A DNA stretch of 64,000 nt from Bacteroidota bacterium (GCA_043811005.1 JBDRNO010000145.1:6008-70007); one strand, 5' to 3'; counted from the first letter of the stretch, positions 5,941 through 22,500 are shown. Notes: generated by a model from the letters alone, not told the origin. A program made the numbers and translations.

Positions 5941-7872
5941 TTATTTAAGGAGGTTAGTAAAATATTCAAATACTATCTTGGCTTTCGCTTTTCCAATAAC
6001 CTCCTCTAATTCAATTAAATCAGCTTTTTTAATTTTTTTAACCGATTGGAATTTTCTCAGAAGTGAATGTGAAGAGCTTTTACCGATCCCGTCAATTTCA
6101 AGCAGTTCCGACTTGATGGTTTCACGGAGTCGTTTGTTACGGTGGTGACTGATACCAAAACGGTGAGCTTCATTTCTTAAATGCTGGATGACCTTTAAGG
6201 TTTCAGATTTTTTATCTAAATACATCGGGGTGGGATCTCCGGGGAAATAGATCTCTTCCAATTTCTTGGCAATACCAATTATCCCGATTTTGCCACTGAT
6301 ATTTAATTTATCTAAACTCTTCATAGCAGAGTTTAATTGACCTTTGCCACCATCAACTATGATCAATTGAGGTAATGAGCTGTTTTCATCTAACAGCCGC
6401 CTGTATCTCCTGTAAACCACCTCTTCCATTGACGCAAAATCATTTGGTCCCCGGACGGTTTTTATATTGTAGTGCCTGTATTGTTTTTTTAATGGCTTGG
6501 CATTTTTAAATACGACCATTGCAGCCACGGGATATGCACCATGTATGTTGGAGTTATCAAAGCATTCAATATGAACGGGAGGTTTTACAAGCCGCAGGTC
6601 TTTCATCATTTGTTTGAGGATACGGTTTGTATGCTTTTTGAGCTGTACCTTTTCAGCCGATCTCTTTTTTTCCAACATAAAGTATTTTGCGTTTCTTTCG
6701 GAAAGTTCAAGCAATTTCTTCTTATCGCCTCTTTGCGGGACAGTAATAGAGACAACTCCTCCCCGGCTTTCCCCAATGGGAAGGGAGAGCCAACGCGCAG
6801 GGTTTCCCCCTCCCTTTGGGAGGTGGTCAGGGGGTGGGCTGGTAATTATCTCCATCGCATCACTGTTAAACCTCTGCCTGAGTTCAGTAATTGCAACAGA
6901 CAGCAATTCTTCAGAACTTTCATCGAGTTTCTTTTTAAGTTCAATAGTATGAGACTGTACGATAGCCCCATTTATAACTTTCATATAATTCACATAACCC
7001 GCCCTTTGATCAGTGGCAATAGAGAACACGTCCACATTGTTTATCCGTGGATTTACAACCGTTGACTTGCTTTGGTATTTCTTTAAAAGACCGATCTTTT
7101 CTTTTACCTGATGAGCTTTTTCGAATTCAAGCACCTTGGCATATTTTTTCATCAGCCCTTTTAAATGCTTAAAAACCCTTTTGATATTTCCTTTGATTAT
7201 TTCTTTGATCTCTGATATTGCCTGATCGTATTCTTCTTCTGTTTGAAGACCTTCACAGGGGCCCATGCAGATACCTATCTGGTAATCCAGGCATAAACTG
7301 AATTTCTTCCTTAGGACATTTTCTTTGGAGAGATTATAATTGCAGGTTCTGAGTTTATATAGTTGTTTAATGAGGTCTAAAATAGTATTCATCATTCTTA
7401 CAGACGCATACGGGCCAAAGTATAGCGAACCGTCATCAACTTTCCCGGGGCGTGAAGAGGGAGAAAAACGGTTGTAACGGGGCACATTGCGAGTGGTAAA
7501 GACCCGGGGGAACCTTTCGTTTTTGATGCAGATCCATGGATATGTTTTATCATCCTTCAACTGAATGTTGTATCTCGGTTGACACTTTTTTATAAGGGTG
7601 TTTTCCAATAACAGGGCTTCCATCTCCGTATCTACAATAATATACTTAATGTCCCTGGTTTTTTTTACAAGAAGAGCAGTTTTCCCAAACACCCTTGTTT
7701 TTTCCCCTTCGGCAGGAGCAAAATAAGAAGAGACCCTTTTTTTTAAGCTCTTTGCCTTACCGACATATAGTAGATGGTTGTTGCTGTCAAGGAATTGATA
7801 TATACCCGGCTTATCAGGCAGGGAACTGATTATGTTTTTAAGGTGTTGGGTATATTTGATATGCGAGGTCAT
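5941..7872 (-). CDS. uvrC: Excinuclease ABC subunit C
   Basis: GIY-YIG N-terminus (PGIYQF..YVGKAK), HIECFDNS, DGGKGQL, HhH C-terminus. Confidence 0.97.
   Translation of the reverse strand: MTSHIKYTQHLKNIISSLPDKPGIYQFLDSNNHLLYVGKAKSLKKRVSSYFAPAEGEKTRVFGKTALLVKKTRDIKYIIVDTEMEALLLENTLIKKCQPRYNIQLKDDKTYPWICIKNERFPRVFTTRNVPRYNRFSPSSRPGKVDDGSLYFGPYASVRMMNTILDLIKQLYKLRTCNYNLSKENVLRKKFSLCLDYQIGICMGPCEGLQTEEEYDQAISEIKEIIKGNIKRVFKHLKGLMKKYAKVLEFEKAHQVKEKIGLLKKYQSKSTVVNPRINNVDVFSIATDQRAGYVNYMKVINGAIVQSHTIELKKKLDESSEELLSVAITELRQRFNSDAMEIITSPPPDHLPKGGGNPARWLSLPIGESRGGVVSITVPQRGDKKKLLELSERNAKYFMLEKKRSAEKVQLKKHTNRILKQMMKDLRLVKPPVHIECFDNSNIHGAYPVAAMVVFKNAKPLKKQYRHYNIKTVRGPNDFASMEEVVYRRYRRLLDENSSLPQLIIVDGGKGQLNSAMKSLDKLNISGKIGIIGIAKKLEEIYFPGDPTPMYLDKKSETLKVIQHLRNEAHRFGISHHRNKRLRETIKSELLEIDGIGKSSSHSLLRKFQSVKKIKKADLIELEEVIGKAKAKIVFEYFTNLLK
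6755..6840. repeat. Inverted doublet of CCCCTCCC/GGGAGGGG REP-like hairpins in-frame inside uvrC
   Basis: ctcctccccggctttccccaatgggaagggag ... tccccctccctttgggaggtggtcagggggtggg; encodes SPPPDHLPKGGGNPARWLSLPIGESRGGV. Confidence 0.75.
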
Positions 7873-7877
7873 AATCC

Positions 7878-10800
7878 TTAGCGTACCAGGGTAACGTGCC
7901 CATTGTATTGATGGGTCTTTCCAAGGAGGTCTCTTGTTATGATCAGCCAGACGTATACTTCTGATTGTGCAAGCTCTCTGCCGTCATTTGCAGTGCCGTC
8001 CCATCCCAGGTAGGGGTCATCTGTGTAAAAGATCTCGTCTCCCCACCGGTTAAAGATGTACATTTTGTAATGGTTCTCATCTATTCCTTCGCCTATGGGC
8101 AAAAACACCTCGTTGAGCTCATCTTTGTTTGGCGTGAATACATTGGGAATGAAGAAAATATAATCGGGGTTTATTCTTACTATAAGTGAAACAACTTCTT
8201 CGCAACCATTTTTATCGGTAACCAGTAATTCAACAGTGTATGAACCCGTATCAGCATAGGTATGAACGGGGTTTTGAATATCAGAATAATACTCATCATC
8301 AAAATTCCATGACCAGCCGGCAAGACTATCACCCGTTGATACATCAGTAAAATAGATTGTGGGGTTCAAATTGGTTGTGAGTTGCGGAACTGCTGTAAAT
8401 TGGGGAACGGGATTAGGCAATACTGTAATCATATCAGGCATGGTGAGTATATCAGAACAACCAAATTGATTTTCTACGGTTAAGGAAACAGTGTAGGAAC
8501 CGGGATAATAGTATGTGTTGGATGGTGTGATATCAATTGATGTATTACCGTCACCAAAATCCCAGTACCATGAGATAGCATCTGAAGACGTATCAATAAA
8601 TTGGACAAGGGATTCAATACAAACTAAGGTATCACCGGAAGAAAATCCGGCTGTTGGGGATGGCAATGAAGTGATGGATATGGAAGCGGTGTCATAGCAG
8701 TAGTTATTGGAACCGGTTATAAGAGTGACAATATATGATCCTGTATCACCATAAGGGTGATTTGGGTTTTGTAATGTTGAATTGCCGCCATCACCAAAAT
8801 CCCACTGCCATGAAGTTGCGCCATAGGAACAGTCTAAGAACTGGGGGTTAAATGGATGGCAGCCGGGTTGTTCAATGGCTGATAAGCCCGCGACCGGGGA
8901 AGCATATACCATCACAGAATTCGGATGTGTTACAGTATCGGTATATACTCCGTTTGTAGCAGCTAATATTACGGAATACGCTCCTGATGTATTATAAGTA
9001 TGTACAACGGTATCACCACTTAATGTGTCAATTGTGCCATCCCCAAAATCCCAATACCAGGAGCCCGGGTTGCCAATGCTGGTATCAATAAATGTTACAG
9101 TGACGCTGTCACATGCCTGTATTACATTACTCATAAAGCCGGCAGCAACAAAGGGAGCAACCACTATGGTTAATGAGCCGTTGCAATATCCCGTGCATCC
9201 GTTTGAATCGGTAACAGATACCGAATAGCTATATGTCCCGGTAGCACCGTAATAATGCGTGGTAGTTGCGCCTGTATCAATACCGCTATCTCCGAAATCC
9301 CAGTTATATGTAAAAGGGGGTGTTCCAACTGTTGGTGTTGCACCGAAGAGGGTGTTTGCACCGAGATAAAATTTGGAAGAAATACAATTCACGATAGGTA
9401 GAGGGTTAACATTTATTGTAAGTGGTGCAGAAGCAGCTATTGCAACGCCATTTAATGGGCAGGGATAGGAACTTGTCATTATACAGGTTACAACATCGCC
9501 ATCGTTCAACGCTGAAGTGGTAAGTGAGCTAGAAGTGCCGGAAACAGAACTATTCACAAGCCACTGGTAGGTTGGGTTTGTGCCGCCATTAACTGGTACG
9601 GCACCAAATGTTACCTGGTCCCCGTCACAAATCCTGGTTGATGTTGCGGCAACATAAATCCCCGGCTCTAAAAAAGGAACTACATTTACTTCAAAAGTGT
9701 CAATTTTAGACCAACCGCAGCAGGGGGATTCGGTTTGCAGATGCACCTCATAAGTTCCCTCGTCAGTTGGGAAATTATGGATTATTGTTGGAGTTGTATA
9801 AGTAGTTATTGTATTGTCATAAACAGTCCATTCATAAGCCAAACCCGCATAGGAGCTGGAAAAGGAGCCGAAATCGCCCGGGCATATCACAGAGTCAGCG
9901 GACTGAACATAAGGAAGGTAAGGCGTGCCATCGCTAAATATTCCCACAAAGTCGGTAAAGATATATGGCACCCCGTTTACGACCAGGGTTATTGAATGAC
10001 GTCCCATTATAGTGTATTGAACAGTAGCTGAATTTCCGGTAGCGCTTAACGGTATAGTACCGCCATCAAAATACCAGAGGATTATACCTGTTGCATTGGT
10101 TGTATATTCAATGTCTGAGTATGTGCAGCCGGTGGATTTCACAAATATTTCCGGTTCTACCGGGCTACTCATATCTGATTGTGCAGCAGCAATGCCTCCC
10201 GGGTCTTCAAAGATCGGCAGACTGATACCTGGCGTACCATTTCCACCGTTTCCTCCTGTTCCGCCCGTTCCTCCTGTTCCGCCATCACCCGCAACACCGA
10301 GGTCGCAGTCGTAGCCGGGGGAGCTTGGCTGGTTACCTCCTATACCGCCAGTTCCTCCTGCACCACTGGCGCCTCCGGGCGAACCGCCCAGGCCGCCATA
10401 ACCGGGGATACCTGAATAAGTATAGCAATCCTTGATTTCGGTGTTGATGCTGTTAGCATATATATAGATACCAAAGGAACCGCCACCGCCTGTTCCTCCG
10501 GCTGCACCGGATCCGCCTTGTCCTCCTTCGCCACCACCGCCACCGCCTGCACCGGCACCGTTATAATTACCAAATAATGACCAGAGGCATCCCTGTGAGC
10601 CGCCACCGCCACCACCTCCTCCACCGGAACCATGCTCACCGATTTGGCCATCCTGACCAGTACCCTGTATGAAGAAATTGCTAAATAAAGGAACCCCGGG
10701 AAGCCCGTTCGCACCGATGGCGCCATCAGCTCCAGGAAGCCCGTCATCACCATTATTAGCCGAGCCGGCATCACAACCCATAGATAAACAAATGTTATCG

Positions 10801-11741
10801 CAATAACCATTTCCTCCTGATCCGCCAGCGCCTCCCCCGGAACCGATTCCGTTCTGTCCCGGGAGCCCGTCTGGGGCATCATTCCCTGACCCGAAACAGA
10901 GAGATGTACCGGAACCCCTTGGACCGCCATTACCTCCATTACCACCGCCATTGCTTCCGGGAAATGATCCTGAAGCACCTGCACCGCCTGCCGTACAGCA
11001 ACCTCCATCTCCATCCCCGTTTTGACCATTCAGACCATTTGCGCCATTAACACCGCCTGTCCCGGAAATCCCGTCTGAACCGTCAGTGCCATTGCCGGCA
11101 TTTATATTGCATCGGGTTATAGAATAATTATAACAGCTATCTATTTGGACCCCATAAGTGGTAACTCCATTGCCGACAGCATCTGCAACAATGACAGTAA
11201 GGTCATGCAGCCGGAAATTGCTGATACCTACACATGAGATTGCAACAAGCCGGTTGGGAGCAGTTTGAATATTGGAATTATTACGGTAGATGACAGTAGT
11301 TTGTGAATTGGATTTTATCCAGGTAGTAGGGTCAAAGCCACCTTCCATGGTAACACCGCTTATCAAATTGAGCGTGTTGGAAATTGTATAATTCCCGGCA
11401 GCGAGCCAAAGCTGGTTGTTAAAAGGATTAGCCAGTGACAAGCCATAAGAAAGGCTGGCAGGATTGGTAATAGAGCCGGCAGCTCCACTGGAAGCGCCTG
11501 TCGGAGTGATATAGATGATGTTGCATTGCTGGGGGAAACACAGATTACACAGATTTATGAAGATTACACAGATTATGATAGTTTTCAGTAGCATGGGATT
11601 GAATCGTGAAAATCGGATAAAAAAATTCCGTGGTCCTTTGTGAGAGCCCTGTACCCTCTGTTTTGGAAAATCCAATCCCAGTGAGCGCGGGAAACCCAGA
11701 TATAACGCAGAGAATATAGAAATGACAGGATGATTTTTCAT
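7878..11741 (-). CDS. Secreted glycine-rich, multi-PKD protein with T9SS type B (gliding motility-associated) C-terminal domain; paralogue A
   Basis: GGxGGxG tracts, repeated WDFGDG PKD motifs, C-terminal IPNVFTPN..IFNRWG..GWDG..VTLVR; true start may be ATG 11594. Confidence 0.85.
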   Translation of the reverse strand: MKNHPVISIFSALYLGFPRSLGLDFPKQRVQGSHKGPRNFFIRFSRFNPMLLKTIIICVIFINLCNLCFPQQCNIIYITPTGASSGAAGSITNPASLSYGLSLANPFNNQLWLAAGNYTISNTLNLISGVTMEGGFDPTTWIKSNSQTTVIYRNNSNIQTAPNRLVAISCVGISNFRLHDLTVIVADAVGNGVTTYGVQIDSCYNYSITRCNINAGNGTDGSDGISGTGGVNGANGLNGQNGDGDGGCCTAGGAGASGSFPGSNGGGNGGNGGPRGSGTSLCFGSGNDAPDGLPGQNGIGSGGGAGGSGGNGYCDNICLSMGCDAGSANNGDDGLPGADGAIGANGLPGVPLFSNFFIQGTGQDGQIGEHGSGGGGGGGGGSQGCLWSLFGNYNGAGAGGGGGGEGGQGGSGAAGGTGGGGSFGIYIYANSINTEIKDCYTYSGIPGYGGLGGSPGGASGAGGTGGIGGNQPSSPGYDCDLGVAGDGGTGGTGGTGGNGGNGTPGISLPIFEDPGGIAAAQSDMSSPVEPEIFVKSTGCTYSDIEYTTNATGIILWYFDGGTIPLSATGNSATVQYTIMGRHSITLVVNGVPYIFTDFVGIFSDGTPYLPYVQSADSVICPGDFGSFSSSYAGLAYEWTVYDNTITTYTTPTIIHNFPTDEGTYEVHLQTESPCCGWSKIDTFEVNVVPFLEPGIYVAATSTRICDGDQVTFGAVPVNGGTNPTYQWLVNSSVSGTSSSLTTSALNDGDVVTCIMTSSYPCPLNGVAIAASAPLTINVNPLPIVNCISSKFYLGANTLFGATPTVGTPPFTYNWDFGDSGIDTGATTTHYYGATGTYSYSVSVTDSNGCTGYCNGSLTIVVAPFVAAGFMSNVIQACDSVTVTFIDTSIGNPGSWYWDFGDGTIDTLSGDTVVHTYNTSGAYSVILAATNGVYTDTVTHPNSVMVYASPVAGLSAIEQPGCHPFNPQFLDCSYGATSWQWDFGDGGNSTLQNPNHPYGDTGSYIVTLITGSNNYCYDTASISITSLPSPTAGFSSGDTLVCIESLVQFIDTSSDAISWYWDFGDGNTSIDITPSNTYYYPGSYTVSLTVENQFGCSDILTMPDMITVLPNPVPQFTAVPQLTTNLNPTIYFTDVSTGDSLAGWSWNFDDEYYSDIQNPVHTYADTGSYTVELLVTDKNGCEEVVSLIVRINPDYIFFIPNVFTPNKDELNEVFLPIGEGIDENHYKMYIFNRWGDEIFYTDDPYLGWDGTANDGRELAQSEVYVWLIITRDLLGKTHQYNGHVTLVR

Positions 11742-11743
11742 TA

Positions 11744-13462
11744 TTATTCTATTATTATTCTTCCATTCTCTAACCTTTCATGCATTATTATTAACAAATT
11801 ATAAATACCGGATGGATAGATGGATAGGTCTATTTCGGATTGGGTATCGTAGATTTCGGATTGATAAATTACCTGCCCTAATACATCATATACCTTTATT
11901 TGTACATTCGTAATTCTTGGAAATTCGCAATTCGCAGTAATAGTAAACACGCCCCTGTTTGGATTGGGATAAATCTGAATAATTTTATTTGAAATAATAC
12001 TCCCCACACCTGTTCCCCCTTCTGTTACTGTTATTAAAATAGTATCGGAATAAGAGCATCCATTGCTATCTGTTACAGTAGCATAATAGGTATGTGTTCC
12101 TTCTCCAGCGATTGAACCATCTACTGTTAATGTTGAGTTTGTGGTACTATCATTCCATAAGTAATCAGTATAGCCGGAACCGGCATTTAAAGTAATTGTT
12201 TCATAAGTATAGATAGTTGTATCATTACCTATATTGTATGTTAGATTAATGACCGATAAGGTTGTTGCTATGATGCTGTCACATCCGTCAATTGATGTCA
12301 GTGAATCGTAATAGGTACCTGCTGTGGTTCTCCATGCCCCGGCTATAAAGACACTGTCTCCGTTACAGATTGTATTCATTTGCGGGAAGGTAAAAGTGTC
12401 ATAATTAACACCCCATACTTTGACAATTCTGAAATGTCCGTCATCAAAATCCTTATTTGCATTAGTTTCCGCACCAAGAGCGACCGTACTGGACAAGTCC
12501 CATGTACTTACACCATAAACTTTATCCCGGTGAAGATGCCCGGCAAACCAAATACCGATGCTATCCTTGTATATATCCAGGTAATTTGTGATGGAGTCAT
12601 ATTCACCATAAGAAAAGGCGCTTACAGGTCCCAAGGGGTCTTTTGTAGGAGGGAAGTGTGTAAATATCAGGATATTTTTTTCAGCTTTGGAGGGGTAGTC
12701 AGCTATCTGTTGTTTAAACCATTGCCATGTTCCACCTGGAAAATCCAATAGTTCTGCCTCGGGGCTAACTCCGGAAAAAAAGAGGGGAGCATGTTCGCGT
12801 GTACCGAAATCAGCGAGTACAAAAAAGTAATTTTCATATTCAAAAGAAAAGTTTTGCAGGTATGAATAACACGCTTGATCGGCATTCCAGACCCGGGTAA
12901 GCCTTGTGCCGTTATCCCATCCGGTGAACGTGGCTTGAAGCGTATCAAAATGTTCAGCAAAGATAGTGTTGAATATAGAGTCGCCATTGGGAGAAGGTGA
13001 TTCAACGCTTGAGGCATAAGGCCATACATCGTGATTCCCAATAAGCGGAATATATGGAATTGTTAAAGAATTCAGAATCTCCCTGAATTTGTAAAATTCA
13101 GACATTTCACCACAGTGGGTAAGGTCACCGGTAATTATAACAAATTTTATCTTCAGGTCGTTTGCGTTTTGATTGAGCCAGTTTACAATATTCCTCAGCC
13201 GAATAGCAGGATCGCCGATATCTCCAACCGGCATTGTATCATTGTAGCCCGGTGAGCCGTAATCATCATCCGGAGCACCTTCACCGATATGAACATCTGT
13301 GAGTTGTACAAAGGAAAACTGCCATGAAGAACAAGACAATGTTGTATTGTGTTCGATTATTACCGTATCAGGCAAATTTATTTGTCCTGTACACAGATTA
13401 CACAGATTTAGAAAGATTACACAGATAAGTAATGCTGAGAGAATTATTGTGAATTTTTTCAT
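11744..13462 (-). CDS. Secreted calcineurin-like metallophosphoesterase with T9SS type A C-terminal domain
   Basis: TDVH, TGD, GNHD and GHLH motifs; signal peptide; IYPNP..G.Y CTD. Confidence 0.85.
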   Translation of the reverse strand: MKKFTIILSALLICVIFLNLCNLCTGQINLPDTVIIEHNTTLSCSSWQFSFVQLTDVHIGEGAPDDDYGSPGYNDTMPVGDIGDPAIRLRNIVNWLNQNANDLKIKFVIITGDLTHCGEMSEFYKFREILNSLTIPYIPLIGNHDVWPYASSVESPSPNGDSIFNTIFAEHFDTLQATFTGWDNGTRLTRVWNADQACYSYLQNFSFEYENYFFVLADFGTREHAPLFFSGVSPEAELLDFPGGTWQWFKQQIADYPSKAEKNILIFTHFPPTKDPLGPVSAFSYGEYDSITNYLDIYKDSIGIWFAGHLHRDKVYGVSTWDLSSTVALGAETNANKDFDDGHFRIVKVWGVNYDTFTFPQMNTICNGDSVFIAGAWRTTAGTYYDSLTSIDGCDSIIATTLSVINLTYNIGNDTTIYTYETITLNAGSGYTDYLWNDSTTNSTLTVDGSIAGEGTHTYYATVTDSNGCSYSDTILITVTEGGTGVGSIISNKIIQIYPNPNRGVFTITANCEFPRITNVQIKVYDVLGQVIYQSEIYDTQSEIDLSIYPSGIYNLLIIMHERLENGRIIIE

Positions 13463-13468
13463 GGTTAA

Positions 13469-13588
13469 TTATCTCTTTTCGCCTTTAATCATTTCTTCCA
13501 TGGTCCTTTCAGCTTCTTCAACGAATTTTGTTGCTCTTTTGAATTGTAATTCCGCGTCTTCTTTTCTGATATCTACGAAATCTTGATA
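13469..13588 (-). pseudogene. Orphan 3' fragment resembling the C-terminal helix of a HEPN-domain protein
   Basis: Manual translation YQDFVDIRKEDAELQFKRATKFVEEAERTMEEMIKGEKR*; no start of its own, abuts the upstream stop. Confidence 0.45.
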
Positions 13589-13596
13589 AATTATTT

Positions 13597-16500
13597 TTAA
13601 TTTTTAATGATTCGCCTGTAATAACTCCGTCCGTTATAATTGATCTCTAAGAAATATAAGCCAGGGCTAAGACTTCCTATATTTTTAAAATTCAGGAAGT
13701 CTGACATTCTAAAAAGATGTATACCAGAAGCAGTTTGATTCTTCTCAATTATTTTTATCTTCTGTCCATGGATGTTCAATAAAGATACCTGAAAAGAACC
13801 TTCCTGGGGTAAATTTATAGAAACGTTAATTTCTAAAGAAAATGGATTCGGGTAAACCCGGGTCTCAAAACCTGCCTGTTCGTCTACTGGTGGAAACTCA
13901 TTTGTACCAGGAACTACATACTCTTCAACATTTATAAAGTTAGATTTTTGAATAGTGTCGGTGCATCCGTAATCATTGGTTATTATTAAAGTTACGGTAT
14001 AGTTTCCGGCAGTAGCATAAACATGCACAGGATTTTGAACAGTATCTGTACCACCATCTCCAAAATTCCAATCCCACATCCATGCATTGACGGAATTGTC
14101 GGCAAAATAAACAGTATCTCCCTCTTCTACAGTGGTTTGCGGAAATGCCTGGAAATTAGCAACAGGGCTTGGAAAAACCAATACCTGGTTTGTTACCGTA
14201 GCGCTGTCGCCACCAGGCCCTCCATAAGTATGTAAGGTAACAGTATAAGTTCCCGGGTTAATATAAGTATGGTTTGGGTTCTCAAAAATTGAAGTATTGC
14301 CATCTCCAAAATCCCATAAATAAGTGATCGCATCGATACTTGTATTTGTAAAGTCAACCAGCAGTGGGGCACAGCCGTTAAATGTTGAGGCGGTAAAATC
14401 CGCGGTTAACGTGCTTGATAGGGTAACGAGATTGTTACAGCTACCCGAACACCCGTTTGAATCAACAACTTCAACCTGTGCAAGATAAGTTCCGGCATTT
14501 AGATAGATATGAGCAACAGAATCTCCGGAACCCATCATTGCATCCCCGAAATTCCATATATAGGTGAATGGTGGCAATCCCCCGAAAATAACGGAAGCAG
14601 AAAAATAGGTGGGTTCACCTGTAATAAATGAATCGGCAGTGCAACTAATAACCGGAATGCCAACGACCGTAACAGTGATTGAGTTGGAAGTATCAACAAG
14701 GCCGCTTGAACAATTAAGAGTGGAAAAGACTATGCAATTCACCACGTCACTATCTGCAAGAGTTGAAGTAGAGAATGTCGGGCTGTTTGAGCCGGTAGGA
14801 ATTCCATTGACCTGCCAGAGGTAATTGGGGATTACACCGGCATCAGTAGTAGATGCGCTGAATGTGAGGGTAGTACCATTGCAAACCATGTTGGTGGTGT
14901 CGCTTGATTGAATAACCACAGATGGCTGGATGACGGGATTCACGGTTACTGTGAAAGTATCTGGGAAAGATATACCGGCACAGGAATTAATGGTTTGCAA
15001 AATTACATCATAAGTGCCTGCCGAGTCAAATGGGTAAGGTATTGATATGGATCCCGGGCCGGATACCGTATCAGAAGCGCCATTCCCCTGAATTATCCAT
15101 ATATAATCAGCAGCGGTTACAGAAGAGATGAACGTGCCCTGATCTCCTTCACAAAGCGAGTCGCTGGAAGAACCTATTGTTGGGTTCAGTCCGCTGCCAT
15201 TTTCATAAATTTCAATAAATTCATAATATGTGTAAGGAATTCCATTTACAACCATCGTAAAGGTTTTTCTTCCGGTTGTCGTAAATGTAGTTGTGGAAGG
15301 GCTGCCGCTTCCAAAAGAGGGTACAGCCCCGGCTCCATAATACCAGTCAATTGTTCCGGTTGAGGTGGTGGAAAAAGTAACAGGTGCGTCTGTATAACCT
15401 GAATATTTGATAAATACGAATGGTTGTTGTAAACTATTAATATTCATAAAGCTAACAGGGATGCCGGCGGGATCTTCATAAAGAGTGTAATTTACGCCAT
15501 TGGCGCCATTTCCTCCAGCTCCTCCGTCTCCGCCTTTACCGCCATTACCGCCATCACCTCCTGAGCCCACATAGCAATTACCATCCCCTCCTCTTGCACC
15601 TCCGTTACCGTTCAATCCACCAGTACCTCCTGCTCCGCCTAAACCACCTAAACCGGGGCTGCCGGGGGTTAGCTGGCAATCTCTGATAACACCGTTTCCT
15701 CCATTGGCATTGATATAAATAGCAAAAGACCCGCCACCACCGGTACCTCCAATCCCACCCTGTGCTGTCTGCCCTCCTTCGCCACCGCCACCGCCACCGG
15801 CACCGGAGCCGTTCCAATTTGGGGGCAAACCGAAAAGGCAATCATAAGGTATCCCTCCGAGAGAGCCACCACCACCTCCTCCGCCACCACCGGTACCATG
15901 TGTGCCTGCAGTGCCTGCAGTACCGTTGCCGGGAATAAAAAATCCACCGGCAAATATCTCTACTCCATCATTTCCTGGGGTTCCATCAGCGCCATCAGTA
16001 CCGTTAACTCCTGGGAAACCATCATGTTTATCAGGGGTACAAGTGACAGGATAATAGCAAACAATTACTTTCATACCGCCATTTCCACCGATACCACCAC
16101 CTGTTCCCGCTCCGGGTTGTCCGCTGTAACCATTAGTAGCATGAATGGGTTGACCGCATGCAAAAGCACAGTCAGCTGTTCCTCTTTCACCACCATCACC
16201 ACCATCTCCTCCGGCATTGCTCCCCACAAAAGAACCCGAAGCGCCATTACCTCCAAATGTACAGCAAGGACCTTGTTCATCTCCATCCTGTCCGGATGTT
16301 CCGTTGGCGCCTGCTATTCCATTAATACCATTTGTTCCATTATCCCCGTTACCTCCATTACCTGAAATAAATTTACACCTTATAATGTTATAATCAGAGC
16401 AATTGCCTAAATACAAAGCATAGGATGAAATTCCATTAGCAAAAGCGGCTGCGCTTCTGATGGTCAGGTCCTGCAGCCGGAAATTTGATATACTTATGCA

Positions 16501-16929
16501 ATACATTGCAACCAACCTGTTTGGTGATGGTTCAATGTTTGAGATATCCCTGTATATGGTGGTGGAAGTTGAATTGCTTTTTTCCCAGGTAATGGCGTCA
16601 AATCCGCCCTCGAGAGTAATATTGTTCAGCATATAAAGAGGATTATAGATAATATAAGTGCCGGAGGACATGTGTATTTTATTATCGGTTGCATTGACAA
16701 GAGTTAAGCCGTATAATAATTCTGCCGGGTTTGCCTTGGTTCCTGCTGCCCCGCTGGTGGCTCCGTTAGGGGTTACATAAACGATTTTGCATTCCTGGGC
16801 GAAAGCCCCTCCCTTGCCCTCCCAGAAGGGGAGGGAGAAAGGTATCGCACTGCAAATGATAGATATTACACAGTATAAAAGGAAGGATTTTATGTTTTTT
16901 GTTAAAGGCATTGTTTTTTTAATAATCAA
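13597..16929 (-). CDS. Secreted glycine-rich PKD protein with T9SS type A CTD; paralogue B
   Basis: Same N-terminal module as A and C (YVTPNGATSGAAGTKANPA), Gly tracts, PKD motifs, VYPNP CTD. Confidence 0.85.
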   Translation of the reverse strand: MIIKKTMPLTKNIKSFLLYCVISIICSAIPFSLPFWEGKGGAFAQECKIVYVTPNGATSGAAGTKANPAELLYGLTLVNATDNKIHMSSGTYIIYNPLYMLNNITLEGGFDAITWEKSNSTSTTIYRDISNIEPSPNRLVAMYCISISNFRLQDLTIRSAAAFANGISSYALYLGNCSDYNIIRCKFISGNGGNGDNGTNGINGIAGANGTSGQDGDEQGPCCTFGGNGASGSFVGSNAGGDGGDGGERGTADCAFACGQPIHATNGYSGQPGAGTGGGIGGNGGMKVIVCYYPVTCTPDKHDGFPGVNGTDGADGTPGNDGVEIFAGGFFIPGNGTAGTAGTHGTGGGGGGGGGSLGGIPYDCLFGLPPNWNGSGAGGGGGGEGGQTAQGGIGGTGGGGSFAIYINANGGNGVIRDCQLTPGSPGLGGLGGAGGTGGLNGNGGARGGDGNCYVGSGGDGGNGGKGGDGGAGGNGANGVNYTLYEDPAGIPVSFMNINSLQQPFVFIKYSGYTDAPVTFSTTSTGTIDWYYGAGAVPSFGSGSPSTTTFTTTGRKTFTMVVNGIPYTYYEFIEIYENGSGLNPTIGSSSDSLCEGDQGTFISSVTAADYIWIIQGNGASDTVSGPGSISIPYPFDSAGTYDVILQTINSCAGISFPDTFTVTVNPVIQPSVVIQSSDTTNMVCNGTTLTFSASTTDAGVIPNYLWQVNGIPTGSNSPTFSTSTLADSDVVNCIVFSTLNCSSGLVDTSNSITVTVVGIPVISCTADSFITGEPTYFSASVIFGGLPPFTYIWNFGDAMMGSGDSVAHIYLNAGTYLAQVEVVDSNGCSGSCNNLVTLSSTLTADFTASTFNGCAPLLVDFTNTSIDAITYLWDFGDGNTSIFENPNHTYINPGTYTVTLHTYGGPGGDSATVTNQVLVFPSPVANFQAFPQTTVEEGDTVYFADNSVNAWMWDWNFGDGGTDTVQNPVHVYATAGNYTVTLIITNDYGCTDTIQKSNFINVEEYVVPGTNEFPPVDEQAGFETRVYPNPFSLEINVSINLPQEGSFQVSLLNIHGQKIKIIEKNQTASGIHLFRMSDFLNFKNIGSLSPGLYFLEINYNGRSYYRRIIKN

Positions 16930-17091
16930 TTTTTATAGGGTCTTGCCTGGTATCGTATATATTAAGTAATATGATTCTATTCCCTTTTATTCTATAAACT
17001 AACATATTTTGAGGCGAGAATAGCAATTTTCTTAAGCCTTTTTTCTTTTGTGATTTTATAAAATCATGCGGATTTCGTTGAATTTTTCTCC

Positions 17092-20000
17092 TTAATAAAC
17101 TATAACTTTTTTAATTATAAATCCCTGCAATGATCGCAGTTTTACAAAATATATTCCTTTACCGGGTAAAGAGACATCATATTTCATGTCTTTATTGAGC
17201 GAAATATAATTTTGCTCTACCTTTTGACCCATAATATTGATAATTTTCAGGTCAAGTTCTTGTTCTGTATCAGGGTTTGCCTCTATTGTAAACTGCCCAT
17301 TATTTGGATTAGGATAAACCTGTAACCTGCAACTTGCAACCTGCAACTCATTCATTCCCACAGTAGTATCAACCGGCTCTTCGGGTTTTATCACTACTAT
17401 TATATCAGTTGCAAAATCAGAGCAATTATAATTATAGGCAGTTAAAGTAACATAATAGATACCCGTATCAACATAAGCATGGGTTGGGTTCTGAAGTGTG
17501 GAGATTTGGCTTCCGTCACCGAAATCCCATTCCCATGATGATGAGTTGATACAGGTGTTGGTGAAGGTTACCATTCCAAGTCCTTCAATGTCTACAGTAT
17601 CTGAGCTGGGGATAAAGCCCGCAACCAAGCCGAATGAAGCACAATCATTCAGTACATCTATTGTTGATAAAGCTGTGTCGAAGCATATTCCGTTACTGAC
17701 AATTAAAAATAATGGGTACTCCCCGGCAGAAGGATAGGTATGAGTTGGGTTTTGTGTGCTGTCATTGAGGGAGCCGTCACCGAAATTCCAGTTCCATATA
17801 GTTGGAGGAGGGGAGGAATTATCGGTAAATGAAACAGTGGCGTTAACAGTGGTTGAAGCAGGTGCGGTAAATGAAGCGGCTAAAGATGGAAGAACGGTAA
17901 GAACCATGTCGTCTTGAGCGGTGCATCCATATTGGTTGATCACGGTAACAGAATAAGTTCCTCCGCTTGTGGTTTGAAAAGATTGTGTGTTACTCCCCAA
18001 AGGTATACCATTTAATTCCCAAATATAATCAGAGCCAGGGTTTCCTGCATTTAAAACAGGGTTTGGCTCATTATCGCAGATCGTAAGGTTAACTCCAAGG
18101 TCAACAGTGGGCTCGCTTATAGATAATGTTAAGGCATCTGTGCCTGTACACCCCGTGGGGCTTATAACAGTAACTTCATAAGTGCCGGGAATTGTGGTTT
18201 GCAATGTTTGGGTATTTGTCCCTACAGGATTTCCGTCAAGTTCCCACATATAAGAAGCCATGCCGGGTATTCCGGCATCCAGAACAGGAAAAGGATCGGT
18301 TGTGCAAATGGCAGTATCGCCACCCAGGTCAACGGGCAGGGAAGTATATATGTCAAATATCATTGTGTCGGATTGAGAGCAGCTTCCATAGCTTACATTA
18401 ACGGAATATATACCCGGAGTGGAGGTTTGCAGGGTTTGGGAGTTGCCCCCAACAGGGCTTCCGTCCAGTGTCCATGAATATGTTGCACCGGGATTTCCAG
18501 CGTCAAGCACGGGGAGTGTGTCGGTAAAACAGATGGAAGTATCGGAACCAATATTAACGGCAACACTGCTTAATACGGTAATTTCAAGTTCGGTAAAGGA
18601 TGTGCCGCAACAGCTTGTTGTTTCAAGGGTGATATTATAAGCCCCGGGATTATTAAAAGTAACATAACCCGGATTTTGCTGGGTTGATGAGGTTATGGAA
18701 CCTCCGGGTATCGTCCAATTATAAGATAATGCGGTTGAAGAAGTGGAAAAATCAATACCATCACTTGTGCAGATGGTTAATGCTGTAGCGGTTATTTCCG
18801 GAGGGGTAAAATCCTGGGTAATATTGATGAAATTCGCAAAAGAATAAGGAGTGCCATCTACTATGAGAGTAATAGTTCTGAATCCCGGGTTGCCGTTATC
18901 GTATTGAACAGTTTCATTTGCGCCTGAGCCGGTTGCGGGATTTGCGCCAAAGCCAAAGATCCAATTGATATTACCTGTAGCAATAACGCTAAAGATAAAA
19001 TCCGTGTTCGAGCAGCCGGAATATTCAACCGTTATTTCGGGTTCAAACGGGTTGTAAGAATCGGAAAATAAAATAGGGTAGCCGGCAGGGTCCTGGTATA
19101 TATCCATACTTACGCCATCAGAGCCAGTCCCTCCGGCACCACCAGTACCGCCAGTACCGCCAGTACCTCCGTTTCCGCCTTCACCTGTATTACAACTGCC
19201 AATAAGATCCGGAGCTAAGCCGGTTTTACCACCTTGCCCGCCCGAACCACCGGTACCGCCGGCACCACCGGGCCCTCCGGCACCACCAGAACCACCGGGT
19301 CCGGGGTTTGTAACACAATCCCTGATCACCCCGTTAGCGCCATTTGACCATATAAAGACTGCAAAAGAACTACCTCCTCCATAGCCACCACTACCGGCAA
19401 ATCCACTCTGACCACCTTCACCGCCACCACCGCCACCGCCACCGGAGCCGGAGACGTAAGATATAGTATCTCCATCAAGTGGATCTATGACAGCGGGTTC
19501 GCAGCCTTTGGCGCCTCCACCGCCACCACCTCCGCCTCCTCCTGCGTGGATCCCGTCAGTTCCAATGGTACCGGTGCCAGGAATATAGAAACCGGCTGTG
19601 AGGACGGCAACACCCTGAGTTCCAACAGAACCGGCAGTTCCATCCACACCGTTTTGACCTGTTTCTCCGTGATTAGTGGGTTTTATATAACAACTGTCAA
19701 CATAGTATTGAAGTTCACACAATCCTGCCCCACCGTTACCTCCTGCACTTCCGCCTAAACCTAAGCCCGGATAACCGGGCGATCCGGGATTTGTATAATC
19801 GCTTCCGGGAGCAACATATACAAGTCCAAGAATAGAGTCAATTGAAAACCCACCTCTTTCTGCACCCAGTCCACCTACACCCCCGGCATTATTTCCGGCG
19901 AAAGAGCCGGAACCTCCCGCGCCACCCAACTTGCAGCAATTTCCCTCTTCCTGCCCGGATTCTCCCCCCAAACCATCTGCACCATTCATGCCATTTGCTC

Positions 20001-20541
20001 CGGGAGTGCCGGTAAACCCATCAGAACCATTTCCAGCATTGATGATACATCTTGATATAATATAATCAGAACATCCCGATAGATATATCCCGTAAGCAGT
20101 AACACCATCACCAAACGCATCATCCATATTGATGGTGATGTCTAATATCCTAAAAGTTGAGATACCAATACATGAAATAGCAATAAGGCGATTTGGCGAA
20201 GTGAGGATATTATTATTATCCCGGTGAATGATGGTTGTTGACATGTTGCTTTTAGCCCAGGTGGTAGAGTTAAAGCCCCCCTCTATAGTAAGGTTATCTT
20301 GCATATTCAGCTCAGATGAGATATTATAAGTACCTGAAGCCATCCTGATGATATTATCTGAAGGGCTGACGAGGGAGAGGCCAAAGGGGAGATCAGCTGG
20401 ATTGCTCTTTGTCCCTGCCGTTCCACTGGAAGCGCCACCGGGAGTGATGTAAATATATCCGCACTCTTGAGCCGGAGCAAAAGAAAATTGGGAAAGAAAA
20501 AAGTAAAAAGTAAATAATGTAAATATCTTTTTACGATTCAT
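17092..20541 (-). CDS. Secreted glycine-rich PKD protein with T9SS type A CTD; paralogue C
   Basis: Signal peptide from ATG 20541 (MNRKKIF; ORF track starts 20589), shared N-module, Gly tracts, LDAGNPG repeats, PKD, VYPNP CTD. Confidence 0.85.
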   Translation of the reverse strand: MNRKKIFTLFTFYFFLSQFSFAPAQECGYIYITPGGASSGTAGTKSNPADLPFGLSLVSPSDNIIRMASGTYNISSELNMQDNLTIEGGFNSTTWAKSNMSTTIIHRDNNNILTSPNRLIAISCIGISTFRILDITINMDDAFGDGVTAYGIYLSGCSDYIISRCIINAGNGSDGFTGTPGANGMNGADGLGGESGQEEGNCCKLGGAGGSGSFAGNNAGGVGGLGAERGGFSIDSILGLVYVAPGSDYTNPGSPGYPGLGLGGSAGGNGGAGLCELQYYVDSCYIKPTNHGETGQNGVDGTAGSVGTQGVAVLTAGFYIPGTGTIGTDGIHAGGGGGGGGGGAKGCEPAVIDPLDGDTISYVSGSGGGGGGGGEGGQSGFAGSGGYGGGSSFAVFIWSNGANGVIRDCVTNPGPGGSGGAGGPGGAGGTGGSGGQGGKTGLAPDLIGSCNTGEGGNGGTGGTGGTGGAGGTGSDGVSMDIYQDPAGYPILFSDSYNPFEPEITVEYSGCSNTDFIFSVIATGNINWIFGFGANPATGSGANETVQYDNGNPGFRTITLIVDGTPYSFANFINITQDFTPPEITATALTICTSDGIDFSTSSTALSYNWTIPGGSITSSTQQNPGYVTFNNPGAYNITLETTSCCGTSFTELEITVLSSVAVNIGSDTSICFTDTLPVLDAGNPGATYSWTLDGSPVGGNSQTLQTSTPGIYSVNVSYGSCSQSDTMIFDIYTSLPVDLGGDTAICTTDPFPVLDAGIPGMASYMWELDGNPVGTNTQTLQTTIPGTYEVTVISPTGCTGTDALTLSISEPTVDLGVNLTICDNEPNPVLNAGNPGSDYIWELNGIPLGSNTQSFQTTSGGTYSVTVINQYGCTAQDDMVLTVLPSLAASFTAPASTTVNATVSFTDNSSPPPTIWNWNFGDGSLNDSTQNPTHTYPSAGEYPLFLIVSNGICFDTALSTIDVLNDCASFGLVAGFIPSSDTVDIEGLGMVTFTNTCINSSSWEWDFGDGSQISTLQNPTHAYVDTGIYYVTLTAYNYNCSDFATDIIVVIKPEEPVDTTVGMNELQVASCRLQVYPNPNNGQFTIEANPDTEQELDLKIINIMGQKVEQNYISLNKDMKYDVSLPGKGIYFVKLRSLQGFIIKKVIVY

Positions 20542-20602
20542 TTTAGTATAATTTAATACAATGATAGAAAAAAAAATAAAAGTATACAAGTTAATAAATT
20601 GA

Positions 20603-20859: not shown

Positions 20860-22500
20860 ATGAGACGTTTTAAAATTACCTTGCTTCTATTACTGTTAAG
20901 TATTAATCTCTACATACCTATCGCATATTCTCAAATATTGAATAAAGACGGTACAATTGACTGTACTTCCCCAACAGAGATAACGATAACTTCAGATACG
21001 ACAATAATAACATCCAGCGGGGATTATGATTACTATAAACATTCAGCTAATCAGGTAATATTTTATAAGGAGAGCGATAAATATACATTTTGGTATAAGT
21101 TAATAATACAAGGTGATTGCAGGCTGACTTTTGATATATTTCCAACAGATCCAAACGATATTTACAATTTTTTTCTTTACAAGTATGAGGGGGACAATTT
21201 TTGCCATGGAATAATTAATAAAAACATATTGCCGGTGAGGGCAAATCTTTTCAGGAATAAAATAAACATGACCGGTACCGGTTTGACATCAACCCCTTCC
21301 ACCAGAGATGGCTTGCGGGATGAACAGGGACAGTACAATGATGCCGAAACTTTACGAACGGATGGCATAAGCTATTTTTATCACAGTTCTCACCATGAAT
21401 TCATAGATACAAAAGCCGGAGATGTATATTACCTCAATATTTATCATACCCTGGGAGATGACTGCGGGCATTTTTTTTATTTGAAAGCTTGTTCAGGTCC
21501 TGCAAAAATACAAGCAACTCACAAACCGTGTTTTATACCGCCTGATGGGGACATGTCGGCTTATATGGCTATTTCGGAAGAAAGACCATCTGAAGAATCA
21601 ATCCCTGATTTCATCGAGCGTAAGCCCATAGAAAGACCAATTGAAACAAAGTTGCCCGAAAAAGAGATTATGACAGCAATAGAAACAGCAGTAATTAATG
21701 AAGAGGAAAAGCTTGCGCAAAAAAGTTCTCACATTGCCAGCGAACCCTCCCGGACGAATTCCCATTTTGACGAGGTTAAGGATAGTGATTGTGAATTTTA
21801 TACAATAACCGGTTTTATAACGGAGGAGAAAAGGGGCTTTCCTTTAGATGCAGATGTTAAAATAGTTGAAGAAGATACAAAAAAAGAGATCCGGGTAGAA
21901 GTATCACCCAAAACAGGGGAATACACAGCCAAGCTAAAGAAGCATATGAACCATAAATTGATCTTTTCCGCTTTGGGATATATAGAGGATTCGTTGATAA
22001 TAGAATATAACCCGGCAATTGATTTAAGAGGGGGGGGAGAATCAAGTACACGTTACTTGCCGGATCAGGATGGATTTAACATTAAATTACAAAACGTTAA
22101 TTCTGGGGAAAACATTGTTTTGAACAATATATATTTCCACCCCAACACTTCGGTGTTTCGGACTAAATCAGACGTAGAATTAGAACGTTTGTTCAATTTC
22201 ATAAAAATAAATGATCATGCAGTAATTGAGATTCAGGGTTATACAAATGGAGATTATTATATTAAGAAGAGAAAGCAATATGCTCATTTGGGCGATGAAT
22301 GGAATTTCCAGGGAACAGCAAAAAAACTATCCAAATGTAGGGCAGAGGTTGTAAAAAAGTATTTGGTTGAAAAAGGTATTAATGAAGAAAGAATCATTAC
22401 CAGGGGATTTGGAGGAGAAAGAATGATTATTCCCGATCCTGTAAGTTACGTTGAAAGTTTGAAGAATATGAGGGTGGAGATTCTGATTCTGAATATTTAG
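20860..22500 (+). CDS. OmpA-family peptidoglycan-binding domain protein with uncharacterised N-terminal domain
   Basis: Signal peptide; C-terminal LNNIYF, IEIQGYT, LSKCRAEVV, NMRVEI. Confidence 0.85.
   Translation: MRRFKITLLLLLLSINLYIPIAYSQILNKDGTIDCTSPTEITITSDTTIITSSGDYDYYKHSANQVIFYKESDKYTFWYKLIIQGDCRLTFDIFPTDPNDIYNFFLYKYEGDNFCHGIINKNILPVRANLFRNKINMTGTGLTSTPSTRDGLRDEQGQYNDAETLRTDGISYFYHSSHHEFIDTKAGDVYYLNIYHTLGDDCGHFFYLKACSGPAKIQATHKPCFIPPDGDMSAYMAISEERPSEESIPDFIERKPIERPIETKLPEKEIMTAIETAVINEEEKLAQKSSHIASEPSRTNSHFDEVKDSDCEFYTITGFITEEKRGFPLDADVKIVEEDTKKEIRVEVSPKTGEYTAKLKKHMNHKLIFSALGYIEDSLIIEYNPAIDLRGGGESSTRYLPDQDGFNIKLQNVNSGENIVLNNIYFHPNTSVFRTKSDVELERLFNFIKINDHAVIEIQGYTNGDYYIKKRKQYAHLGDEWNFQGTAKKLSKCRAEVVKKYLVEKGINEERIITRGFGGERMIIPDPVSYVESLKNMRVEILILNI

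Follow-up and report, generated by a model that had tools for sequence, protein, structure and literature searches.

Three neighboring genes encode secreted proteins with a shared head module

We analyzed a 64,000-nucleotide stretch of the genome of a Bacteroidota bacterium (GCA_043811005.1, JBDRNO010000145.1:6008-70007), hereafter called the window, and focused on three genes, C, B, and A, which lie on its minus strand between positions 7878 and 20541. Their products, P0003, P0002, and P0001, are paralogs that each begin with a signal peptide and a glycine-rich head module and end with a type IX secretion system (T9SS) sorting domain. The genes were delimited as follows.

17092..20541, minus strand: gene C (P0003), 1149 residues from Met17 (open reading frame (ORF) 17092-20589, 1165 residues); signal peptide, head module, immunoglobulin-like (Ig-like)/PKD stalk, T9SS type A sorting domain.
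13597..16911, minus strand: gene B (P0002), 1104 residues from Met7 (ORF 13597-16929, 1110 residues); signal peptide, head module, three PKD stretches, T9SS type A sorting domain.
7878..11594, minus strand: gene A (P0001), probable start Met50 (ORF 7878-11741, 1287 residues); signal peptide, head module, five PKD stretches, T9SS type B (CHU_C) sorting domain.

Over the full length, P0001 shared 42% and 38% identity with the other two proteins, and the head of P0002 shared 51% and 50% identity with the heads of C and A. N-terminal hydrophobic leaders were readable in all three translations. The likely start codons are Met50 of P0001 (position 11594), Met7 of P0002 (16911), and Met17 of P0003 (20541). 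The start of P0002 agreed with a database entry, P0006 (1104 residues). In the ORF of P0001, 49 extra N-terminal residues (window 11594-11741, minus strand) stood ahead of a typical signal peptide (MLLKTIIICVIF...), so its start is probably Met50.

Pfam and NCBIfam recognized only the C-terminal halves of the three proteins. An earlier reading of this DNA, made by a model from the sequence alone (the sequence-only reading), had noted one type B and two type A C-terminal domains on differing stalks, and both observations held. TIGR04131 matched P0001 with 40.4 bits (cut-off 35) and TIGR04183 matched P0002 and P0003 with 37.8 and 43.7 bits (cut-off 23); Pfam CHU_C and Por_Secre_tail were likewise over their cut-offs. 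The stalks contained five, three, and three PKD stretches in P0001, P0002, and P0003, and P0003 added BiPBP_C-like and PKD_3-like repeats. The window's genome (4.6 Mb, 310 contigs, 83% complete) encoded a PorU sortase over its cut-off (1454.6 bits). Judged by their sorting domains, P0001, P0002, and P0003 are T9SS cargo proteins. The same genome held 37 PorP/SprF-family matches over the curated cut-off, a number that points to a very large repertoire of type B T9SS cargo.

The heads, in contrast to the C-terminal halves, had no name. The first ~500 residues of all three proteins matched no Pfam family at E ≤ 10 and no NCBIfam model. A sequence search of the PDB with the B head at E ≤ 10 found no solved structure, 6F45 included; the rows returned, tails of ribosomal protein uS5 at E ≥ 0.11, were discarded as low-complexity noise. 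The ESM Atlas returned unnamed clusters at 0.87 or lower, one of them with DUF1565 on 11% of its members, which we took as leads only. Searches of open-access papers and preprints found no description of the head module, nor of a polyproline II (PPII) lattice in a T9SS cargo protein.

A glycine scaffold of fixed length carries paralog-specific loops

In each head, an N-terminal module (N-module) was followed by a long region dominated by glycine, from which four loops could be delimited. The parts of the head and the domains behind it were mapped as follows.

16366..16800, minus strand: N-module of the P0002 head (residues 44-188); predicted first rungs of a right-handed parallel beta-helix, AlphaFold2 predicted local distance difference test score (pLDDT) 92-98.
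15493..16365, minus strand: predicted glycine lattice of P0002 (residues 189-479); 39% Gly, 13 Pro; predicted compact domain, neither alpha nor beta, with a few beta-helix rungs.
11100..11531, minus strand: N-module of the P0001 head (residues 71-214).
10224..11099, minus strand: predicted glycine lattice of P0001 (residues 215-506); 40% Gly.
20038..20472, minus strand: N-module of the P0003 head (residues 40-184).
19111..20037, minus strand: predicted glycine lattice of P0003 (residues 185-493); 38% Gly.
Loop L1, minus strand: B 16132..16182 (residues 250-266), A 10869-10916, C 19786-19854; pLDDT in B down to 77.
Loop L2, minus strand: B 16021..16074 (residues 286-303), A 10752-10811, C 19669-19728; pLDDT in B down to 82.
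Loop L3, minus strand: B 15811..15861 (residues 357-373), A 10560-10595, C 19450-19509; pLDDT in B down to 80.
Loop L4, minus strand: B 15562..15597 (residues 445-456), A 10293-10343, C 19180-19236.
G9 tract, minus strand: B 15862..15897, A 10596-10631, C 19510-19545; constant length in 206 of 207 family members.
G6EGGQ tract, minus strand: B 15766..15804, A 10515-10553, C 19405-19443; constant length in 207 of 207 family members.
15181..15492, minus strand: linker and first Ig-like domain past the head of P0002 (residues 480-583); beta-sandwich strands in the model.
T9SS type A sorting domain, minus strand: B 13600..13857 (residues 1025-1110), C 17095-17319.
7881..8150, minus strand: T9SS type B sorting domain of P0001 (residues 1198-1287).

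The motifs picked out by the sequence-only reading, namely a CC pair, GSF.G.N.GG, an H-G9 tract, and a G6-7EGGQ tract, were all aligned in the three proteins. The three sets of unrelated loops that it had quoted at equivalent positions coincided exactly with L1, L2, and L3, and L4 was a fourth variable loop additional to them. The CC pair was less general than had been supposed: it was conserved in orthologs of A (0.90) and C (1.0), but among B orthologs in a fraction of 0.42 only, and among other members in 0.11-0.16. Conserved cysteines were found at several loop and rung positions (alignment columns 134, 142, 254, 375, and 409), and those of the loops probably form disulfides.

Taken by composition, the glycine region could be a disordered or collagen-like spacer. 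It was 38-40% glycine, and G-x-x triplets ran on for about ten consecutive repeats just past the N-module. However, it held only 12-13 prolines (about 4%) in 291-309 residues, and its 105 Gly columns were 86-92% identical within and between the paralog groups, a likeness of the three far beyond chance. Segment lengths were nearly fixed as well. Besides the two long tracts listed above, GGx segment h had a constant length in 202 of the 207 members and GGx segment g in 184. The loops were the sites of length change across the family, spanning 3-35 residues in L1, 9-36 in L2, 3-29 in L3, and 5-20 in L4. A spacer or collagen-like rod would tolerate length change in its segments, so the near-fixed lengths argue against one. 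The frequency of Gly-Gly pairs was 1.70-1.86 times the expected one at lag 3, roughly 1.45 times at lag 6, and near expectation at lags 1, 2, 4, and 5, which fits three residues per turn. The non-Gly scaffold residues were mostly small or polar (N 20, A 16, T 14, D 11, and S 10 of 227).

We then compared conservation of scaffold and loops by mean pairwise identity within the clades of B, A, and C, in this order, and between clades.

N-module: 0.54/0.58/0.57 within, 0.47-0.50 between.
Glycine columns: 0.91/0.88/0.92 within, 0.86-0.90 between.
Non-Gly scaffold: 0.36/0.42/0.37 within, 0.26-0.29 between.
L1: 0.46/0.39/0.36 within, 0.14-0.27 between.
L2: 0.37/0.45/0.41 within, 0.18-0.24 between.
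L3: 0.45/0.49/0.57 within, 0.12-0.31 between.
L4: 0.51/0.42/0.60 within, 0.30-0.34 between.

The between-clade values of the loops are perhaps underestimated, their columns being hard to align, and clade A takes in a few outliers. Among orthologs, the loops (36-60%) equaled or exceeded the exposed scaffold positions (36-42%) in identity, and the L3 consensus of 97 B orthologs differed from the L3 of P0002 at two positions only. These comparisons indicate that the loops are neither invariant nor hypervariable among orthologs, but paralog-specific and then maintained. The loops had been called hypervariable at first sight; this description stood between paralogs and, for length, family-wide, but not among orthologs, where the loops were about as conserved as the exposed scaffold instead of more variable. 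The pattern is what would be expected if each paralog acquired its own function long ago, with no ongoing diversification. At the DNA level, no long near-identical repeats linking the three genes and no template/variable repeat pairs were found, the repeats present being short families of Gly codons or PKD motifs; nothing thus pointed to recent gene conversion or to template/variable pairs.

Predicted fold of the head

Residues 44-600 of B, covering the head and the first Ig domain, were modeled by AlphaFold2 with a 56-sequence alignment, which gave a mean pLDDT of 93.8 and a predicted template modeling score (pTM) of 0.79. Model residues 1-145 formed regular strands and residues from about 460 to 535 an Ig-like sandwich. 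Residues 146-436 had almost no helix or strand by DSSP, and their pLDDT was 94-98, lowered to 77-91 exactly at the four loops. The glycine part folded alone (residues 183-495 of B) reached pLDDT 94.7 and pTM 0.84, again with almost no DSSP helix or strand. A second program gave a chain pLDDT of 84-88.

The near absence of DSSP structure could suit the spacer, with the confident model then an artefact of low-complexity sequence. The confidence, however, fell at the loops only, and beta-helix rungs and conserved cysteines were interleaved with the glycine segments. A collagen-like triple helix also fits badly, given about ten triplets at most, the low proline content, the compact prediction, and the interrupting loops and beta rungs. 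We consider a spacer highly improbable. The sequence-only reading had depended on the region being neither disordered nor collagen-like, and on this point it was borne out, both by the confident model of the region alone and by the segment lengths.

Structural searches were run against representative PDB chains. The best neighbors of the whole-head model were the pectate lyase Pel9A (1ru4_A, Z 15.7, root-mean-square deviation (rmsd) 2.6 Å, 175 aligned residues) and an alginate lyase (6kfn_A, Z 15.2), and Foldseek matched the whole head to 5olr_C (E 9.2e-4). All 50 neighbors listed bore names of lyases, hydrolases, esterases, tailspikes, or adhesins of beta-helix fold. These neighbors suggest that the N-module is the start of a right-handed parallel beta-helix. 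The alignments covered model residues 3 to 525 (1ru4), or generally 3 to about 456, the likeness itself extending over the N-module and a few later rungs only. In the model, the strands FFIPG, SFAIYINANGGNGVIRDC, and YTLYED within the glycine region carry on the rungs of the beta-helix.

Such neighbors raise the possibility that the head is enzymatic, with the beta-helix as the frame of a polysaccharide lyase or hydrolase and the glycine lattice as an accessory or substrate-binding platform. The highest-ranking chains were polysaccharide lyase family 9 (PL9) pectate/rhamnogalacturonan lyases, an alginate lyase, glycoside hydrolases, and phage depolymerases (Z 10-15.7), and six polar residues of the N-module, K74, R84, D111, Y127, Y137, and R141, were 97-100% conserved over 207 sequences. 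On the other hand, the regular beta-helix is limited to about 145 residues (5-6 rungs), and no lyase, hydrolase, or esterase family model matched at E ≤ 10. The beta-helix fold is also common in adhesins, PfbA being among the same neighbors. We regard an enzymatic head as rather unlikely.

The glycine part gave a different picture when it was searched alone. Ten of 48,161 representative chains reached Z ≥ 2 and none Z ≥ 5. The best neighbor was gp38 of phage S16 (6f45_D, Z 3.6, rmsd 7.2 Å, 98 of 313 residues aligned), followed by a nine-helix springtail antifreeze protein (7jjv_B, Z 3.0), a snow-flea antifreeze protein (2pne_A, Z 2.5), and Obg (1lnz_B), with which the Pam3 fiber (7ypx_A) was tied at Z 2.2. 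With a limit of E ≤ 10, Foldseek gave just four PDB rows, and none was significant. Two were chains of the tail tip of mycobacteriophage Bxb1, and two came from the glycine-rich domain of ALK (7ls0_B, E 3.2, TM 0.14; 7nx3_F, E 7.3; TM 0.10-0.14 overall). When these four chains were realigned, Bxb1 9d93_Qb reached Z 2.1 and ALK stayed below Z 2. Among the viral models of BFVD there was no match at E ≤ 0.001, and the top rows were glycine-rich, collagen-like, or Gp38-named proteins with a TM of about 0.1.

Since gp38, the springtail antifreeze proteins, Obg, and the Pam3 fiber have been classed as glycine-rich PPII lattices in passages of PMC13243192, bioRxiv 10.1101/2023.11.25.568672, and PMC9608196, we read the modeled glycine domain as a member of the PPII or polyglycine II (PGII) lattice class. 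All structural matches were weak, which suggests a topology without a solved counterpart. The polyglycine-II bundle likened to gp38 in the sequence-only reading was therefore supported in part, gp38 being the top neighbor and fixed Gly motifs alternating with loops, but the match is weak and no Pfam family joins the two. The likeness to the ALK glycine-rich domain, with which a comparison had also been proposed, was even weaker by the Foldseek E values and the Z below 2, and no Pfam match was found.

Two of the four best neighbors of the glycine part were antifreeze proteins. A flat glycine lattice could accordingly be the working surface itself, binding ice, mineral, or a crystalline surface, with the loops secondary, and the mostly small or polar character of the non-Gly scaffold residues would suit such a surface. 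The antifreeze matches are weak (Z 2.5-3.0), however, and the non-Gly scaffold is the least conserved part of the head (0.36-0.42 within orthologs), whereas a face that matches ice is expected to be conserved. We judge this reading very unlikely.

Family size and distribution

The B head was used as the query of an exhaustive profile-free search among 1.84 billion cluster representatives (50% identity). The search found 1007 representatives at E ≤ 1e-3, 443 at ≤ 1e-10, and 149 at ≤ 1e-30, matched mostly over the full length of the head. A word-indexed search scored 8000 candidates, of which 585 proteins matched at E ≤ 1e-3. Where the sources named these relatives at all, the names were 'PKD domain-containing protein', 'T9SS type A sorting domain-containing protein', 'gliding motility-associated-like protein', or 'hypothetical'.

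The head module was N-terminal in 175 of 208 full-length matches; in the other 33, it began ~360-630 residues in, and the proteins reached up to 5035 residues. Companion domains were scanned in 14 further members. In 12 of them, SprB, Ig_7 (Ig-like), PKD, or HYR repeats occurred along with a T9SS sorting domain; the other two, which were the shortest at 537 and 633 residues, had no Pfam match. In a 2482-residue member, P0164, part of the stalk (residues 1598-1640) matched Pfam Mycobacteriophage_Gp53 (E 2e-13).

A FastTree tree of 208 head domains resolved clades of A (20 sequences, support 0.96), B (98, 1.0), and C (8, 1.0), and the type of sorting domain was retained within clades. Among the 19 other members of clade A, 15 carried a type B sorting domain, one a type A, and three none at 1e-6, one of which (P0088) was labeled partial by its source. 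In clade C, six of the seven other members carried a type A sorting domain. Orthologs shared at most 74% amino-acid identity.

The window's genome contained five copies of the head module, three of them in the window. The other two lay in open frames of 1985 and 1761 residues on two further contigs (G000:C17 about 8900-10500 and G000:C249 about 6900-8500), and each match there fell into two pieces, one from the N-module and one from late in the glycine region. At E ≤ 1e-20, the module was present in 14 of 31 related genomes, the window's own counted, and in all seven other genomes of the organism's family. In an even sample of 300 high-quality genomes from the phylum, it was present in two. 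The head module is thus common in particular lineages rather than phylum-wide.

Gene order and the possibility of a heteromeric fiber

Genes in the order C-B-A, all on one strand and either overlapping or 0-4 bases apart, were found in the genomes G001, G013, and G007. B was directly followed by a paralog of 1240-1330 residues in six of the seven relatives' loci that were fetched. In G007, a fourth paralog (G007:C103, locus L010, 12467-15799; 1111 residues, 40% identical to B) stood between B and A. In G013, the C gene was in two overlapping frames of 470 and 740 residues (G013:C53, locus L009, 6083-9554), perhaps owing to a frameshift or an assembly error. We read genes C, B, and A as old paralogs that are probably co-transcribed. 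Among public sequencing runs, no RNA run was listed with the window's sequence, and DNA runs shared at most 0.10 of its words.

The close packing of the genes suggested that the heads or stalks of A, B, and C might associate into one heteromeric surface fiber with a composite loop tip. The C-B-A order and its short gaps were kept across several genera and families, and GhpA, a T9SS fibril, is a seven-stranded parallel bundle according to sections of its preprint. Complex prediction of the B head with the A head gave an interface score (ipSAE) of 0.39 (runs 0.39, 0.25, and 0.48), against 0.00 for the best of three controls; the runs agreed in at least 80% of contacts, and the partner pLDDT was at least 84. 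In calibration, 116 of 157 solved complexes came up to the mark, as did 2 of 215 mismatched pairs, and scores of 0.60 or under comprised 18 of those 157 complexes and both mismatches that passed. The tool itself rates a pass of this size as more often wrong than right. Moreover, A and B are 50% identical, and the signal may reflect self-association or mere likeness; because the chains are paralogs, the prediction can't separate hetero- from homo-association. The B head with the A head was the one pair predicted, and no interface was reported for it. Gene order also gives exceptions, as the C-type gene was on a separate contig in G010, G003, G017, and G020, and the order in G017 was A, one other ORF, B. 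Unlike types of sorting domain further imply unlike anchoring. The hetero-oligomer suggested by the sequence-only reading thus gained a weak in-silico pass, and we hold it to be unlikely, though not negligible.

A bolder form of this idea can be imagined. Each head would have a fold without solved precedent, in which a beta-helix runs on into a PPII/PGII lattice of ~290 residues (about eight Gly segments, among the largest natural ones), and would be a cellular, T9SS-displayed analog of the receptor-binding tips of phages. The products of the conserved C-B-A operon would stand side by side and join twelve paralog-specific, disulfide-braced loops in one composite tip. We offer this arrangement as speculation and doubt that it holds in full.

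Genes around the unit

The three paralogs had been described as tandem. They are indeed neighboring genes, but not in strict tandem, because one gene intervenes between B and A.

11744-13462, minus strand: P0004, 572 residues, calcineurin-like metallophosphoesterase with a T9SS type A sorting domain.

P0004 was between B and A in the window only and was missing from that position in the loci of seven relatives. A 36-nucleotide stretch coding for its signal peptide (13391-13426) was 94% identical to the corresponding stretch of P0001 (11538-11573), which suggests that the P0004 insertion copied, or shares, the leader of P0001.

The C-B-A unit was flanked by housekeeping genes and an OmpA-family gene, with a UvrC-like gene following gene A, and the flanking genes varied between genomes in the seven relatives' loci. 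The OmpA-family gene (20860-22500, plus strand) adjoins gene C, is divergent from it, and encodes a 546-residue protein with a C-terminal OmpA domain. It was considered as a PorE-like anchoring partner and rejected, since it was not kept beside the unit in the seven loci. Two ORFs farther away (24684-28304, plus strand, 1206 residues; 28326-29282, minus strand, 318 residues) had no Pfam match at E ≤ 1e-5. An ORF of 1420 residues (55361-59623, minus strand) in a locally GC-richer stretch resembled, by its translation alone, a fused duplicated protein of ATPase/activase type. It had been considered as a candidate fourth paralog and is not glycine-rich.

Proposed role of the three proteins

In T9SS cargo, the C-terminal domain is the signal for export and anchoring, as is established and summarized in part of the GhpA preprint. 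Because the C-terminal sorting domain anchors the protein, the N-terminal head would be its distal end. Each protein would be exported by Sec and then by the T9SS, and retained at the outer membrane through its sorting domain, of type A for B and C and of type B for A. The Ig-like/PKD stalk would project outward, so that the ~450-residue head forms the distal tip of a short surface fibril. The head itself would be a right-handed beta-helix with eight glycine-rich segments of three-residue periodicity enlarging its later turns; these segments are predicted to pack as a large lattice of PPII/PGII type. The four loops, several with conserved cysteines, would emerge between glycine motifs of fixed length and, perhaps together with conserved polar residues of the beta-helix, form paralog-specific ligand-binding sites. 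The cell might thus display three related heads with three specificities, one per paralog.

A position at the far end of an Ig-like stalk held by a sorting domain fits a head for recognition or adhesion. We therefore favor, with a probability of about 0.55, the reading in which A, B, and C form short fibrils with ligand-recognizing heads and the maintained, paralog-specific loops on a rigid Gly scaffold are the likeliest determinants of specificity. The family of diversified adhesins or recognition proteins proposed by the sequence-only reading agrees with this in the distal placement of the head, the fixed Gly motifs, and the loops of variable length, but the diversification is not ongoing among orthologs.

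Several points weigh against this reading. The fold is a prediction, and its PPII geometry, its helix count, and where its loops would lie are presumed; the matches to PPII lattices are weak (Z 2.2-3.6, rmsd 3.9-7.2 Å) and insufficient alone. The modeled beta-helix part is as close to polysaccharide lyases and hydrolases as to adhesins, and the nearly invariant polar residues of the N-module could point to an enzyme. For protein A with its type B domain, no PorP/SprF gene was found on the contig that holds the window; the genome's 37 matches are all elsewhere. The operon is proposed from gene spacing alone.

For protein design, glycine-rich PPII lattices are attractive as a third type of building block. 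Here, a very large lattice fused to a beta-helix is confidently predicted in a family of 1007 representatives at 50% identity that has no family name, and if a structure confirms it, the natural repertoire of PPII lattices would be greatly enlarged. If the reading is true, many Bacteroidota surface fibrils that are labeled only 'PKD domain-containing protein' would gain a domain annotation for their tips. It would also mean that bacteria and phages reached one solution for surface recognition, a rigid Gly scaffold with exchangeable loops. The conserved three-gene unit would offer a natural system for how loop sets on a fixed Gly scaffold encode specificity.

Comparison with known systems

Among the closest known systems, and alike in principle, is gp38, the tail-fiber tip adhesin of Salmonella phage S16 (PDB 6F45), with its relatives. 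It sits at the distal tip of a fiber, and its conserved Gly-rich motifs, in a PPII-type lattice, alternate with variable loops above a beta-structured base, described as a beta-helix domain in a passage of PMC9608196. It differs from the head in having no sequence or Pfam relation to it, and the structural fit is weak, as given above. In gp38, the PPII segments occupy residues 115-230 with 10 helices (as stated in part of PMC13243192), compared with about 290 residues of glycine region here. Its loops are hypervariable, whereas those of the head are stable within orthologs, and it is a phage protein, whereas the head belongs to a T9SS cargo of a bacterium. As far as sequence comparison can tell, the head module belongs to neither the gp38 nor the ALK family, and it is an analog of gp38 rather than a relative.

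The glycine-rich domains of the receptor kinases ALK and LTK (PDB 7LS0, 7NX3, 7N00, 7NX1) share with the head long Gly runs (G6-G9), which in ALK/LTK are packed as a multilayer PPII honeycomb. The structural likeness of ALK to the head was weak at best (TM 0.10-0.14, Z below 2), and in Pfam no match was found. The ALK lattice is tied to a TNF-like domain, whereas the predicted lattice of the head sits on a right-handed beta-helix.

Fiber protein gp24 of cyanophage Pam3 (PDB 7YPX) resembles the head in a 39% Gly domain of extended motifs stacked on a beta-structured base, and its less conserved distal tip was proposed to bind the receptor (passages of PMC9608196). No sequence relation to the head was found, and the structural match was Z 2.2. 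gp24 forms a trimer; its base is TNF-like and its motifs number 12. The mycobacterial PE_PGRS proteins are bacterial surface proteins, as the three proteins here would be, and their Gly triplet repeats are predicted by AlphaFold as PGII sandwiches, as reported in sections of PMC9436101. They belong to another phylum and use another export route, and we compared them by description only. In the same sections, the number of PGRS helices is highly variable and large indels are tolerated, whereas the scaffold here has a fixed length; these passages do not mention a beta-helix base such as the one predicted here.

For the fibril as a whole, the solved precedent is GhpA, the grappling-hook protein of Aureispira (PDB 9FLP), a T9SS fibril of SprB/GhpA type whose adhesin head is N-terminal and stands on an Ig-like stem, as parts of its preprint describe. 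The build is the same, from Sec leader and N-terminal distal head through Ig-like stalk to C-terminal T9SS sorting domain. Our family profile matched the stem repeats of GhpA (9flp_A) with E 1.7e-210 in 13 stretches, at profile positions about 541-1047, and left the head unmatched. Single sequences of P0001 and P0003 did not match GhpA at 1e-5, so the likeness is found at the profile level only. GhpA is also far longer, with 5898 residues compared with 1100-1290 in A, B, and C, and its hook is likened to Antigen I/II adhesins in a passage of the preprint.

Pel9A (PDB 1RU4) is the closest solved structure to the beta-helix part, onto which the N-module and the interspersed rungs superpose. The two share 17% identity and no family model, and about 290 residues of predicted glycine lattice replace most of the helix. 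The conserved K74, R84, D111, and R141 of the head might belong to a catalytic site.

Only a handful of glycine-rich PPII lattices have been solved, namely those of springtail antifreeze proteins, Obg, two carboxylases, gp38, Pam3 gp24, and ALK/LTK, to follow passages of PMC13243192, bioRxiv 10.1101/2023.11.25.568672, and PMC9608196. As we read the models, what is new beside these systems is a PPII-lattice recognition head of new predicted topology in a large, unannotated bacterial family.

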